DNA of 64,000 nucleotides from Kondoa subrosea (taxonomy: Eukaryota). The stretch covers positions 1,478,925 through 1,542,924 of the forward strand of contig BCIN01000004.1 in the NCBI GenBank assembly GCA_039545335.1. The letters are read 5' to 3'. Positions 22,899-58,664 of this stretch are shown here, piece after piece. Position 1 is the first letter of the stretch; the number at the start of each line of letters is the position of its first letter. Made by a program: the position numbers and the translations under genes. The notes under the pieces were generated by a model. That model was not told the origin of the DNA and ran no database searches. It saw only the letters and a list, made by a program, of their open reading frames with translations.

Positions 22899-24685
22899 AT
22901 GGTGTCCTTCAAGAAGAAAGCTTTCTTCAGCTCACTGCCAATCGGTCTTTCGCTTCTCGTTCTATATCTATTCTTGCATAACGAAGAACCTTATGTGACC
23001 AAGCTGGATCCAGCGCTTCTCCTTCTCAACCCTCAAAATGCTCAGTCGAGTAGACCTTATTTACGGAACAATTTACGAAATGTGAGCATACCGAGTTTTG
23101 CATTGCTATCATTGTCTGATCAAAGAGGGAACAGAGAGCTATGCGAACTCTACAAGATTTCGAGACCTTGGATATGTCTGTGAAAGATCCTGCCATGCTA
23201 CCGCCTGGAGCAAGTCAAAGAGATTATGTCAGTTACAATAAGGTGAGCTATTCCTCTCTCTCTATTCACTATTCGGAATTCTGGGGCCTCATGCTTGCAT
23301 TTAGTACTGCTGGCAGACTGAAAAAGGATGGGAAAGAAGAGATGGTCGCATCAATCACGCAGTAACTCGTTCAGTACCAGATTACGATCTGTTTCGCAAA
23401 GTCGTTTCCCACGTTACTACTTTAGCTCTAGCCTATCATTTCAGCGAAGCCGATTATCTTTATCGAGAAAAAGCTTTGGATCTCATACATGGTTGGTTTC
23501 TTTCACCTGAAGCTGGAATGCTACCAAGAATGGAACATTCAAGTATATGTTCTGGTAAACCTCTCAATGATTCTATTCCTGGTAGCGGAAGTCGATCTGG
23601 GATCTTGGATCTGTTCCCGCTATCCCATATTTTCAAGGCAACAGAGATTTTGAGATTGGGTAAAGATGATCAAGGATTGAGAATCAAGAGCGGTTTGGTT
23701 GAATGGGCGAAAGAGTATGCAGAATGGCATGAAGTCCATCCGTTTGCTGCTTTGGAAAGTCGAGCTGTGAATAAGTGAGTTGCGACCGTTCTATGATGTA
23801 CTTGAATGCTGAAGAGGATTGCAGTCACGGAACCGCTTACGACATTCAATATCTGTCGCTGCTCCGCTTCATCAATGAAGAGCCATACTATCCGTCTATG
23901 TATGCAGCTCATGTAGAAAACTACGTTATGCCTCGGGCAATGAACGCGATACAAGTGAGATCCATTATTCCAAAAGAGTGACAATTGCTGATCCTGGTAT
24001 ACAGGTCGATGGTCGTCAACCATTCGAATTGGGTCGACCAGCTTCATGGGATTATTCGCTCTTCAATCTTCGTCTTGTCCATCTTCTAGCCTACGAACTT
24101 GATGCAGCTGCTTCAGATCTACCTGAGCATCTTAGCACAAGTCTCTGGACTCTTACACCTCCACCTTCGGCCCCTCTTGAAGAACAAGAAGAATTCCAAG
24201 ATGATCTGGAAACCTTCAAAGCAGTAGCTAATTCAACGGTGCCAACCTACGACACTCAAATTATGCCACCTGTAGTCGCGGCTCATGACTTTCTTCTTGC
24301 CCATGCACTAACGGAAGGTGCAAGTTGGCCAGTCTCAGATGTACACCAAGAATTCCCTGTTCAAACTCTACTTATCCTCATGGAAGATATCAATCAGAAT
24401 TTGGACATCATTCGAACAAATCGATATGGCTTAGGGAAAAGATGGTCAAAAGGAATTCTTCAATTGAGGTTGATTGACGAAAGGCAAAGAAGTCGATCTA
24501 CTTCCATCAAAAATTGGTTGAAGAGTCGATTCATTGAAAGTCAACAGTTGTTGGAGAAGAGTTTGATTGGAGCTACTTCGGCTGGCATGCTTTGGTTCGC
24601 AGTGCGGTTAGCTTGGCGCAGTATGAGACAGAAGAAGGCAGGGCCGGGACATCAAAGAGTTGGATCAATGGCTTTCAAAGCTTAA
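22899..24685 (+). CDS. Alginate_lyase-fold polysaccharide lyase (PL38/PL5-like) with hydrophobic segments at both ends
   Basis: LPPGASQRDYVSY, WFLSPEAGMLP, GILDL, spliced VNNHGTAYD, I..DGRQPFELGR..WDYSLFNL. N-terminal LPIGLSLLVLYLFL and C-terminal AGMLWFAVRLAW. Confidence 0.75.
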
Positions 24686-24871: not shown

Positions 24872-27217
24872 TCAGTTCACGATAAGCCATAAAGTCAAAC
24901 TAGCAGCCAGCAGGGGATGGAGGTACTCGCGGACACTGCTTGAAGCTGCATCTTGGCTTGTAGTGCTCGTGAAGTACGAAACAGGCGGCGAGAATTTGTT
25001 TGACCCGTAATCAAAGTAGTCGTCCATGTACGATTCTGGAAGTGGAGGTAGCGATTCTACTCCAAAGGTAAGGGTCGTTATCATGCCCATCACCTTGAAG
25101 GAACGGATCAGCGAGTACTAGAAGAATTTGAAGCAAAGTGCTTACCATGTGCGGCAAAATGTGACAATGAAGCAACCAGGCTAAGCAACAGTATCAGTAC
25201 GACTCTAGCAAATTCATTGCGCTATAGTACCTCCAGGACTTTATCGGAAAAGATCAGCTTGGGCTCAACTGAAGTGCAAGGAGACTCACTCATCGACTCG
25301 AATCCGGTAAGCGACCCAGCCCTCTGGTGTTCCCGGGACAATACCCGTTGGACTGCCTTGATAAGACGCTCCAGGTGAAGGATAGACCACATTCGTATCT
25401 CTGATAACAGCTTTGGATGTATTCCAAGTACTTTTGAGCGTTGCTGGGTCATAAAGCCCTTCTCCTCCTCCAACTGTTATTTGCTTTAGTACAATCCTCC
25501 TTTATGCAAAATGTACGAGGCTTACGATAGTAGTAATGAGCACCGTGAGCATGGAACGGATGTGTTTCAGATACATTAGAAGGGTTGGCGAGATTTTGAA
25601 TGATGATGTCTAAGATTTCTCCTTTCTTAGCAGGGTAGGAGAGGGTTGAGGGATCGTATCCATTGTTCTCGCTTGCCAAAGTATAGTTCGGTTTCAAAGT
25701 GCCAGCGTAAATTTGAACAAGAGTCGGCACGTTTGGTGCGGTTTCGTTCGATGAACGGTTGTTGATGACCCATGCTGATCCTTTACCTGTGGTGTTGTAA
25801 GGAACGTTGATCTGCTGGCCGTTCATGATGATTGTTCTGGTCACTTCCTCGTCTTTGGGTGGTGGTGCATACATTCCTTGCTTTTGTGTCAAGTTGTGCA
25901 GGATCCAGCCAAAGCTTTCGAGAGGAAGTGGAAGAGTGACGTTTAAATCAGCTGGGGCGACTAGAGAGCTATCGATCGAGGACTGATCGTAGGAGAGTAG
26001 AGCGACACCTTGAGTCTTGACAGGCCGCCAGCGAGTCTCCAGGCGAATCCAGTAGTTTCCGTTCTTTCCGTCTTGACGTAGCTGATCTTGCGATTTTGTC
26101 TTGAGTAGGAAAGAGTAGCGTTGACCTGAGGCGATTTCCAAATGGTCAGTGTCATATTGCTCGACTGATCATCGTCAGCAGGGAGGATCATAATCTTCAT
26201 CAGTACGCACGATAGCGACCATCAGCTTCTATCAAAGTCATGGTATCATGATCCTCAAACAGCATACTGATATAATTCAAGGCAGTACCACCGACGACTC
26301 GGAAGCTGTGAAGCGAGAAATTTGCGAATCAGTAATTGTCCGTTTGCACTGAATGCATACTGACCGGTATGTCTTATCCGGTTGTACACTGATCTTCTCA
26401 TACCCGCAAGAAGTGCTGCACACTTGATCAGGCAAAAGAGCGGAAGCATTACATTGCCCAAGCGCTTTGCCGTTTAACAAGAGTGCTTGTGGCTCTCCCA
26501 ACCAAGCGAAGGTCTCGTTCACTAAACCGGCGATGATAGCTGAATCATTCTTGTGCCAGTATTCCGAAAGCAACAGAGTACGCTCTAAAACAGAGACATG
26601 TGTTTAGTCCTCCAAACGGTCTTGATGCTGCTGACGCACCTTCATCGTACTGATATGGAGGCTCCTTCCCGCTCTTCTCTTTGATATTAAGAGAGCCTTG
26701 AGCAGTCATTGCTTGCATGCCGACATGAGCGTGATAGAAGTAAGTTCCGGCATCACCATCTTGTAATTGAAATTCGTAGTCGAAGTATGATCCTGGAGGG
26801 ATGGGCCACTGACGAAAACACCACAGCAGGTCAGAAATAGCTCAATCAGTACATGAATGGCAATCTTACTTGAGATAGATTCGGGGTGCCATCCGCGAAG
26901 CAGGCGGCTCGTTGACTTAAACCATGCCAGTCTGCAGCCATGTCAGACGATATGCAACAACAAGGATGATTGAGTAGCTCACGAAGGGTAACATTTTCGC
27001 CAGACGGTTCATTATCGTTGTACACGCGAATCCAGACATGCTCCCCTTCCGCATATTCGAGAGGTGGACCTGGAGATGTACCATTGATGACAGAGGAAGT
27101 ACGAGGAGTGCAGTCACTCGTCAGAGTTGTTGTGTTGATTCTAAGAATCGTATCAGGTTGCCAAGCAGAGGCAATCGAACAGAAGGAAAAGAATATTAAT
27201 AGCAGAAGAGATCTCAT
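24872..27217 (-). CDS. Secreted multicopper oxidase (ascorbate oxidase/laccase-like, AA1)
   Basis: Signal peptide MRSLLLLIFFSFCSIASA. All four Cu motifs present: LHWHG (split by an intron), YFYHAH, HPFHAHG, WLLHCHILPHMVMGM. Hydrophobic C-terminus. Confidence 0.93.
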
Positions 27218-27992
27218 CTCGGGAAGGTGTTGCGCAGAGATGGCAAGGATGAAGAGATACAGAGGAATGCAAAAGATTTGTTCTGACAGTAGAATACAGA
27301 TTCTACTTAAGAAAGCATGGGGTGACTTGAGACACACCTAGAAGCATCTGCACTGCTACGCGGGAAGCATGCTGTGGTCATGCGCTTTCCCGGTACTATT
27401 ATGTCATGTCTCTGCCTCTCTGGGTCGCAGGGACAGCCGAGTCCCTTGCAATTTCCTGAGATGTGGAGATGTGATACAGAAATATATTAAAATGCTGAGC
27501 CGGGGCGAGCGTTCTTGTTAAAGAGGCTACTGTTCGCGCTTTTGGCGCCGTTGAGATCCAAGATTGCTGTCACGCAGAACCAAGCAGAACCTGTGCGGGC
27601 ATAAAATGCCTCGTCGCCGGATCTTTTTCGGTCCCTTCATCAGATTCTTGTCGAAAACCGCCAGTCCTCAGGCTCTACTGTACAATGACTCATCGCATTT
27701 ACTGGCGACCGATGCTTATGATGACCAGAGCCAGCTCTGAGAGCTTGCTGTCCCTAATGCGGCTCACCACGCCTAAGTCCAAGATATACCTACCTTGTTT
27801 CTCTCCTCCTTTGTGTTTCCTCGACATTCTGACCGAGCCGTTACACCATCACATGTACGGTACCCCGAGTGGCCTTCTGATTCGCATACTGTATCTTTAT
27901 TGTTGTCTTTATTTAATTGCATTTGCTGTACGTTTCTACTGGTACTATTTCTGTGAAATTGTATATCTGCTCGCTTGAACGGTCACGAAGCG

Positions 27993-57100: not shown

Positions 57101-58664
57101 ATGCCTAGTCCATGTTCTATAAGAAATCTATGCTTCGCCTCTTTTTTAGTCTCTGCTCAAGCTCATAATTGGCTAACAAAGTCAGTATATCCATTCTGGA
57201 ACTACTCAAAACATTGACTGGCTTCCGATATTCAACAGCCCGAAAGCGAGAGCTGGCTTATTCGGTGAAATCGGAGTAGAGGACAATTGCGAAAACGACA
57301 ACACAGATGTTCCCGATGGCAATACGTATCAAAGAGGTCAACAGATTGAAGCAACCTGGACTTACAATAGTGAGTTTATGAAAGTGATGGCCTGCGTGTT
57401 GCACTGATTACGATTCCTCTTTAGATCATTGTTAGTCTCGACTCTAATGGACCACTGCTGGATTAATGATGAATATTGGTAGGGAACGGGTTCTCCAGAT
57501 TTTCGATAGTCCCTGCCGGCCGTAAGTGCCTAAAGCAAATCTCATAGGTTATGCTGATCTAGTTTTGCAGAGGAAACGGACAAGGATGCTTTCCATGATC
57601 CCAAGAATGTCAGTCAGGCTCCATAATAGTCTGTAAGACTCGTTTCAACAATTACGATGCAGTTTGTCAAGATTTCGTGCATGTCTCAAAATTGCGGAGG
57701 AAGAAGACTAGGTCTTGATGGACCGCAATGTAAGCTCACTATTCGCCCCTTTAGCTCTTAAGCTGATTGGATTTGAGACAGTCGATTACTATGGACCTTA
57801 CAATCTTCCAGCGCAATCTGGGATCCCGCAAGACAATTCTGAGCCAGACCTCGCTTGTCGAACGAATATTACAATACCTGCACTGGCGGATGGGAGCTAT
57901 GTTCTTCAATGGCTAATGTATGGAGTGCATGTAAGTCTACGTACTACATAGTCTCTACGGTGAGCTGAAGGCTAGCAAAAAAAGGATTCGTATGGTGTTG
58001 TTGATGAGACATTACCGCTCTTCCGAAATTGCGCGAATGTGGGTGATATTCGAATAGAGTGTTCAATTCTTATTCGTTGGACAGATCAAGATTAGCGGCG
58101 GTAGCTCAGTCCAGACGAAGGAGTCTGATGGCTGCGCATTCGTAAGTGTTCGCTGCCCATCGCTACCTCATACTGACGAAAGCTGATAGGAATGGGAAGG
58201 CGGTGATCGAGTAATTCAATTAGAATTGCTAGTGATATCGCTGATGATTGCAACAGGCTTTGAGCGATGCAACAGATGTAGGCAAGATTACCAGTTTGAA
58301 ACCCGACGAATGCGGCTACTGGCTCTTCAACTCCATCAACGCTTCAGCGGGCTATTACATGCCCAAAGGACTGGCTGGTCCGGATGGGAAAACTGCAGCT
58401 CAAGATCCTACAGTATTGCGTCACGGTCAACCTCAAGAAGTCATCAATTGTGGAGGTCAAGTAGGAGCAAATTCTTCTGGCAAGCCATCACCAGTAGCAG
58501 TAGCTATCTCTAATGAAGATCAAGGTTCGGAATCAACAAGTACAGTCGTAGTGAAGGAAACTTCGACTACTCAGCCTGATCAACAGAAGTTGGTCAAGCA
58601 GTGTAAGAAAGATCATATAGTAAAGCGATACGTGAGGATACTTTGGAAGAGGAAGAGACGTTGA
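57101..58664 (+). CDS. Secreted histidine-brace, LPMO-like copper protein (unassigned family), about 10 exons
   Basis: Signal peptide ending SAQA then His22 (HNWLTNPKAR); YQRGQQIEATW.YNNHWNGFSRFSIVP; ITIPALADGSYVLQWLMYG; LFRNCANIKISGG; Cys-containing C-terminal extension. Confidence 0.75.

Follow-up and report, generated by a model that had tools for sequence, protein, structure and literature searches.

The analysis of the 64-kb stretch of DNA considered here (hereafter, the window) outlined a plus-strand gene with a six-base internal exon, ATCATT, which is very probably real and supplies the codon for a conserved His. The interpretation that we favour, and regard as likely, is that of a genuine and constitutive micro-exon in an 11-exon gene, the product of which would be a secreted protein resembling lytic polysaccharide monooxygenases (LPMOs) and distantly related to the AA9 family. 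According to this interpretation, in an intron-rich genome of the fungal type the two short introns flanking ATCATT (55 and 52 nt) would be recognised and removed separately, just as the remaining eight are, and their separate removal would leave the six bases spliced in, yielding Asn-His-Trp. The resulting 349-residue secreted protein would belong to a small and poorly sampled LPMO-like family, and its mature N-terminal His and the micro-exon His, located some 50 residues further on, would form a copper-binding histidine brace.

Structure of the gene model and of the probable micro-exon

The gene model, spanning positions 57101-58664 of the plus strand, was assembled by hand and reads as a single open frame of 349 codons. 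The model contains ten introns, all of them GT..AG, and the eight besides those flanking the micro-exon measure 46-58 nt. Its main features are the following:

57101-57180, plus strand: exon 1, with the start codon, the putative signal peptide and the predicted mature N-terminal His (CAT, 57164-57166), which opens H-N-W-L
57239-57369, plus strand: exon 2, 131 nt
57370-57424, plus strand: intron 2, 55 nt, GTGAGT...CTGAT...TTTAG
57425-57430, plus strand: exon 3, the putative micro-exon ATCATT, which completes Asn (AAT), holds His (CAT) and begins Trp (TGG)
57431-57482, plus strand: intron 3, 52 nt, GTTAGT...TTAAT...GGTAG
57483-57521, plus strand: exon 4, 39 nt, completing Trp and followed by the conserved strand N-G-F-S-R-F-S-I-V-P
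57571-57608, plus strand: exon 5, 38 nt
57663-57729, plus strand: exon 6, 67 nt, with a conserved C-x-x-x-x-C-G-G segment
57782-57930, plus strand: exon 7, 149 nt, with the first half of the AA9-like C-terminal motif D-G-x-Y-V-L-Q-W...H
57985-58038, plus strand: exon 8, 54 nt, with a Phe codon (58021-58023) at the position of the relatives' Tyr that aligns with the AA9 axial Tyr
58085-58141, plus strand: exon 9, 57 nt
58190-58210, plus strand: exon 10, 21 nt, a second very short exon, encoding the family-invariant G-G-D
58257-58664, plus strand: exon 11, 408 nt including TGA, with a conserved Cys-containing C-terminal module, a Ser/Thr-rich linker and a basic tail

The hydrophobic leader of the encoded protein ends in A-Q-A and is directly followed by H-N-W-L, with the cleavage site placed by eye, and some 50 residues separate the predicted mature N-terminal His from the micro-exon His downstream. 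A tblastn search with the 349-codon model found no paralogues within the 64-kb window.

Inspection of the sequence around ATCATT shows that exon 2 finishes in TACAATA at 57369, the last A being the first base of an Asn codon. The intron upstream of the micro-exon carries the donor GTGAGT, a CTGAT element 17 nt from its 3' end, a pyrimidine run and a terminal TAG, and the one downstream carries the donor GTTAGT, the elements TTAAT and CTAAT, respectively 16 and 35 nt from its end, and again a terminal TAG. When the micro-exon is included, the junction codons read AAT CAT TGG (Asn-His-Trp), and the His codon (57427-57429) lies wholly inside the six bases; when it is skipped, the junction codon is AGG (Arg), the product reads Asn-Arg and the frame is kept. 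The bases, the intron lengths and the in-frame change from NNHW to NR on skipping given in the preliminary description hence all match the sequence. ATCATT is, in addition, an internal coding exon of at most 15 nt bounded by canonical introns of a size typical for the gene, which is how a micro-exon is defined here.

Relatives of the predicted protein

Searches outside the window used single exons or relatives as the query, and not the whole spliced protein. With exons 2, 7 and 11, Pfam returned no family, the sole row being an insignificant similarity of exon 11 to Bindin (E 0.095), and PDB phmmer searches with exons 7 and 2 gave no matches. Word-based protein searches with exons 7 and 11 (length class 'longer') returned nothing, as did Pfam searches with the read-through of exon 7, intron 7 and exon 8 and with the N-terminus of L001 (a metagenome locus described below), and NCBIfam provided irrelevant or low-complexity rows only.

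Relatives were identified through an exhaustive HMMER search using as the query exon 7, the in-frame intron 7 (with stops as X) and exon 8. At E<=0.001 it retrieved 37 proteins, and seven of them (P0003, P0005, P0006, P0009, P0010, P0018 and P0036) were kept. The remaining 30 were dropped; most of them are long proteins matched through 3 to 15 short repeated stretches, and the five that were checked in Pfam presented bacterial cadherin-like, Big_9, CopC-like or RTX repeats, or weak CopC-like matches only. The exon 7 motif P-x-L-x-D-G-x-Y-V-L-x-W thus attracts many bacterial CopC-like and cadherin-like repeat proteins, and queries based on short exons can mislead in spite of their significance.

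A word-based search with P0003 as the query returned P0003 itself and P0018 only. Both proteins are complete; P0003 (336 aa) is encoded on a 1362-nt contig and P0018 (387 aa) on one of 1371 nt. A further protein, P0039 (430 aa, on a 1609-nt contig), was reached through the cluster of P0036. The second of two metagenome scans provided L001, a 1012-nt locus without introns, the protein of which is designated P0040. The first metagenome scan, and scans of viral and prokaryotic genomes for the relatives' DNA, detected none. The fragments P0005, P0006, P0009 and P0010 are open frames on genomic contigs of 3.9-55 kb.

Four relatives (P0003, P0018, P0039 and L001) cover the micro-exon site, and all of them are read without introns. 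Contigs of 954-1609 nt are too short to accommodate ten introns, indicating that the site-covering relatives are either transcript-like or intron-poor. Homology in P0005, P0006 and P0009 stops just past the exon 7 stretch ending in Y-G-V-H, as though intron 7 were common to them, and P0009 and P0010 run uninterrupted over the exon 6/7 junction, as though they lacked intron 6, so that intron content seems to be variable within the family.

Several minor features were also observed in these sequences. In L001 the frame is broken by a single base near base 120, at the position of a Cys codon conserved in the family, and there is an Asn/Asp-rich linker. The C-terminus of this relative contains a LysM-like module that scores 20.7 bits (cut-off 20.9) and may hint at a chitin-type substrate. 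Exon 11 (58257-58661) and the relatives share a conserved module of about 70 residues after the LPMO-like core, with an invariant Cys, Y-W, R-x-G-P-P-A-E-V and A-C; this module is without a Pfam match, and in the P0003 structural model its pLDDT is below 50. With five members reached in very large databases, most of them below the Pfam cut-off, the family looks under-described.

Evidence for inclusion of the micro-exon

The Asn-His pair encoded at the micro-exon site is present in all four covering relatives, which reveal what the protein requires at this position and not how the window gene is spliced. The pair is followed by W, Y, I or R, then by N, G or S, and then by G-F, and its Asn and His are both invariant columns in the family alignment (A3). 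P0003 and the inclusion product share seven consecutive identical residues around the site. Furthermore, P0003 and P0018 can be aligned with the window model over its full length (172 of 327 and 150 of 344 positions identical, respectively), which supports the other nine introns as well.

To place the micro-exon model among the possible splicing patterns of this region, every GT..AG solution with one or two introns was enumerated, the introns being no shorter than 35 nt and the inner exon measuring 1-40 nt. The enumeration yielded 219 models, 32 of them in frame and free of stops, which were scored with a hidden Markov model built from the four relatives only. The micro-exon model ranks first of the 32, with 371.8 bits; skipping scores 355.1 bits, 16.7 lower, and the next model 352.5 bits. 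The claim that a six-base exon supplies a conserved His is hence well backed, both by the relatives and by the ranking of splice models, and ATCATT is predicted to be included in the mRNA.

The frequency with which such an exon might arise by chance was assessed with 200,000 shuffled versions of the stretch between exons 2 and 4 (113 nt, of which the inner 104 nt were shuffled). A frame-preserving AG..GT mini-exon of 3-15 nt was found in 98,557 shuffles, about half, and is hence not unusual. Frame-preserving mini-exons containing a His were obtained in 5,234 of the 200,000 shuffles, six-base exons yielding Asn-His in 116, and six-base Asn-His exons that also have a GTNAGT donor in three. The bare pattern AG-AYCAYN-GT occurs four times on both strands of the 64-kb window, the micro-exon site included, and the weight of the argument therefore rests on position and homology rather than on the pattern.

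These results bear on the possibility that the exon is unused or that the gene is decaying, in which case exon 2 would be joined directly to exon 4 and the product would be a His-less, copper-dead paralogue or the gene a young pseudogene. The presence of some frame-preserving mini-exon in about half of the shuffles is compatible with this scenario, and so is the replacement of the relatives' axial-position Tyr by Phe in the window copy. Nevertheless, the 349-codon frame is intact over all 11 exons, the six bases, together with both splice sites, yield precisely the residues invariant in the family, an outcome seen in so few of the shuffles, and the skipping model loses 16.7 bits against the family profile. 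As regards the substitution, AA10 LPMOs normally carry Phe at the axial position, and the Phe of the window protein (58021-58023) would correspond to an AA10-like state. Non-use of the exon or decay of the gene thus appears quite improbable.

The preliminary description had also put forward that the exon might be included or skipped depending on conditions such as copper supply, generating a copper-binding form and a form without Asn-His. Skipping takes place in frame, and the skipped mRNA would hence be no obvious target of nonsense-mediated decay. There is, moreover, a precedent for condition-dependent micro-exons in Xlr2 of Trichoderma virens, for which both micro-exon isoforms, dependent on glucose level, are reported (PMC11121469). 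Against such a switch, skipping requires a single 113-nt intron, roughly twice the longest of the gene's other introns (46-58 nt), retention of either flanking intron leads to a stop codon, and the skipped product would be left without two family-invariant columns. Exon skipping, in addition, makes up 0.5% of alternative-splicing events in Coprinopsis cinerea, the one fungus compared on this point, against 67.5% for retained introns (PMC12230235). The proposed isoform switch is consequently left unsupported, and we deem regulated inclusion very improbable; the same strong doubt applies to a true cassette exon that would tune the ratio of a copper-loading to a His-less secreted form. If true, the cassette reading would imply a splicing-level switch of a metal site in an uncharacterised LPMO-like family.

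A probable LPMO-like protein at the edge of the AA9 family

A feature common to the window protein, P0003, P0018, P0039 and L001 is the presence of a His immediately past the signal peptide (5/5 members). In Pfam searches, residues 12-141 of P0040, the protein of L001, matched AA9 (PF03443) with 32.0 bits (cut-off 27.8), and the micro-exon-site His falls within this segment. P0040 is the only one of the four site-covering relatives above the cut-off, P0003, P0018 and P0039 scoring 19.6, 15.5 and 14.3 bits. Among the fragments, P0036 scored 15.5 bits in the AA9 scan and P0005 had no match. P0003 also matched DUF7492 below threshold (20.2 bits, cut-off 27), and DUF7492 was not found in the literature searched; a broader search of the LPMO literature likewise provided nothing on this H-N-W-L family.

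Comparison of the family profile with the PDB returned 23 matches at E<=1, all of them AA9 LPMOs and each covering only about 50 residues of the C-terminal motif. In these alignments the axial Tyr of the AA9 Q-x-Y motif is matched by a Tyr of the relatives, and Pro stands opposite its Gln. The Tyr is present in P0003, P0018, P0039 and L001, and the window protein has Phe in its place. The PDB alignments therefore locate the similarity in the C-terminal motif and not at the micro-exon His, and only the Pfam match of P0040 reaches the His region. Given inclusion of the micro-exon, an invariant His is nonetheless found about 50 residues after the first, within the span of the P0040 match to AA9 and in a region where pLDDT is below 50.

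Structure prediction provided additional, low-confidence indications. The AlphaFold model of P0003 had a mean pLDDT of 35 with a three-row alignment, which made it unusable, and of 49.4 with nine rows, with values below 50 near both His residues. In a Foldseek search with the latter model, AA9 and AA11 LPMOs made up 12 of the first 13 rows (E 7e-5 to 6e-4), with the AA11 structure 7p3u ranking first and with low target TM-scores (0.32-0.41). VIA-align searches with the same low-confidence model gave the Magnaporthe effector NIS1 as the best match (Z 8.5), followed by LPMOs of the AA15 (5msz, Z 8.2), AA11 (9exj, Z 8.0) and AA9 (Z 8.0) families and by many others at about 7. LPMOs constituted most of the 50 rows, with Z between 6.4 and 8.2, a range that the tool itself rates as common. 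As leads, an Atlas feature search pointed to a mostly Zoopagomycota cluster at 0.93 and to LPMO_10, DUF7492 and 'SCE4755 polysaccharide monooxygenase' clusters at 0.84-0.88, those bearing LPMO_10 lying at 0.84-0.87.

Taken together, the N-terminal His, the second invariant His and the aromatic residue at the axial position argue for a member of the LPMO superfamily located at the edge of AA9. The micro-exon-site His, the mature N-terminal His and the AA9-like C-terminal motif fit together in a histidine-brace reading, and the two His residues are thus likely to form a copper-binding brace. Copper binding, and any enzymatic activity of the window protein, are predictions from its sequence. The histidine-brace assignment of the preliminary description can consequently be retained in part: the conserved His, the N-terminal His and the C-terminal motif agree with it, but the similarity to AA9 is weak or borderline. 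Its suggestion that a missing micro-exon would hide the family assignment fares poorly, given that complete relatives mostly fall below the AA9 cut-off as well and that the PDB similarity lies in the C-terminal motif.

A real exon would also be compatible with a protein that does not hold copper in a histidine brace, the conserved His being structural or otherwise employed in a secreted, non-catalytic protein with the shape of an LPMO, such as a binding protein or an effector. The borderline similarity to AA9 leaves room for such a protein, as does the fact that the best VIA-align match, level with the LPMOs, is the effector NIS1. The P0003 model is, moreover, of low confidence at both His residues, and none of the alignments obtained pairs the micro-exon His with an LPMO His at the residue level. 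Against this alternative, the predicted mature N-terminus is a His in 5/5 members, another His is invariant and the AA9 axial position is held by an aromatic residue, which together make up the full LPMO triad pattern; the LysM module of L001, at just below its cut-off, would moreover fit chitin-type glycans. On these grounds a non-copper role for the protein is considered unlikely, and a secreted LPMO-like protein remains the favoured product of the gene.

Comparison with known micro-exons and LPMO families

Micro-exons are a known feature of fungal genes. In the mushroom Coprinopsis cinerea, about 9% of gene models contain a micro-exon of at most 15 nt, and misannotated micro-exons can break gene models (PMC12230235). 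The omission of the micro-exon would introduce a premature stop in 835 of 1,165 micro-exon gene models from that species (PMC12230235). Like those of C. cinerea, the exon described here is a tiny internal coding exon that separates two short canonical introns of an intron-dense gene of the fungal type, and it is easily lost in annotation. It differs in that its omission keeps the frame, in that it carries a probable metal-ligand residue and in that it is known from DNA sequence. With Xlr2 of T. virens (PMC11121469), the mechanism proposed in the preliminary description shares the principle that presence or absence of a micro-exon changes a functional domain. In Xlr2, however, two glucose-dependent isoforms were observed, whereas the switch in the window gene is only a proposal.

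Micro-exons being common in intron-rich fungi, the exon in the window is a fresh example of a known feature, ordinary in itself but placed at a notable residue. In biological terms it amounts to a pair of short introns separated by six bases, in a genome rich in introns. Provided that the exon is real, its omission would leave a gene model in frame and seemingly complete, but without the residue likeliest to hold copper. Such a model would represent a silent annotation error, of relevance for the cataloguing of LPMO-like proteins. The literature searched contained no papers joining micro-exons and lytic polysaccharide monooxygenases.

With respect to the LPMO families, the window protein and its relatives share with AA9 (formerly GH61, PF03443) the predicted secretion, the predicted mature N-terminal His, a second His and, in the relatives, a C-terminal His/Tyr strand motif that aligns to AA9 structures. 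They depart from AA9 in their N-terminal motif (H-N-W-L), in a second His only about 50 residues after the first, in a Gln of the Q-x-Y motif that is not conserved in the family, in the Phe that replaces Tyr in the window copy and in the extra conserved Cys-containing C-terminal module. Structure matches to AA11, AA15 and AA10 LPMOs were about as strong as those to AA9 with the low-confidence P0003 model, but the family has no sequence-level match to these three in Pfam or PDB searches. The locus hence points to a small and thinly sampled family at the edge of AA9, which could merit characterisation.

The gene content of the window is eukaryotic and fungus-like, with P4-ATPase, pantoate ligase, alginate lyase, multicopper oxidase and WD40/Utp21 sequences all present as exon-sized frames. 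The alginate-lyase-like fragment lies at 23305-23775 of the window, and exon fragments of a laccase-type multicopper oxidase were observed on the minus strand at 25452-27337, about 30 kb upstream of the LPMO-like gene.
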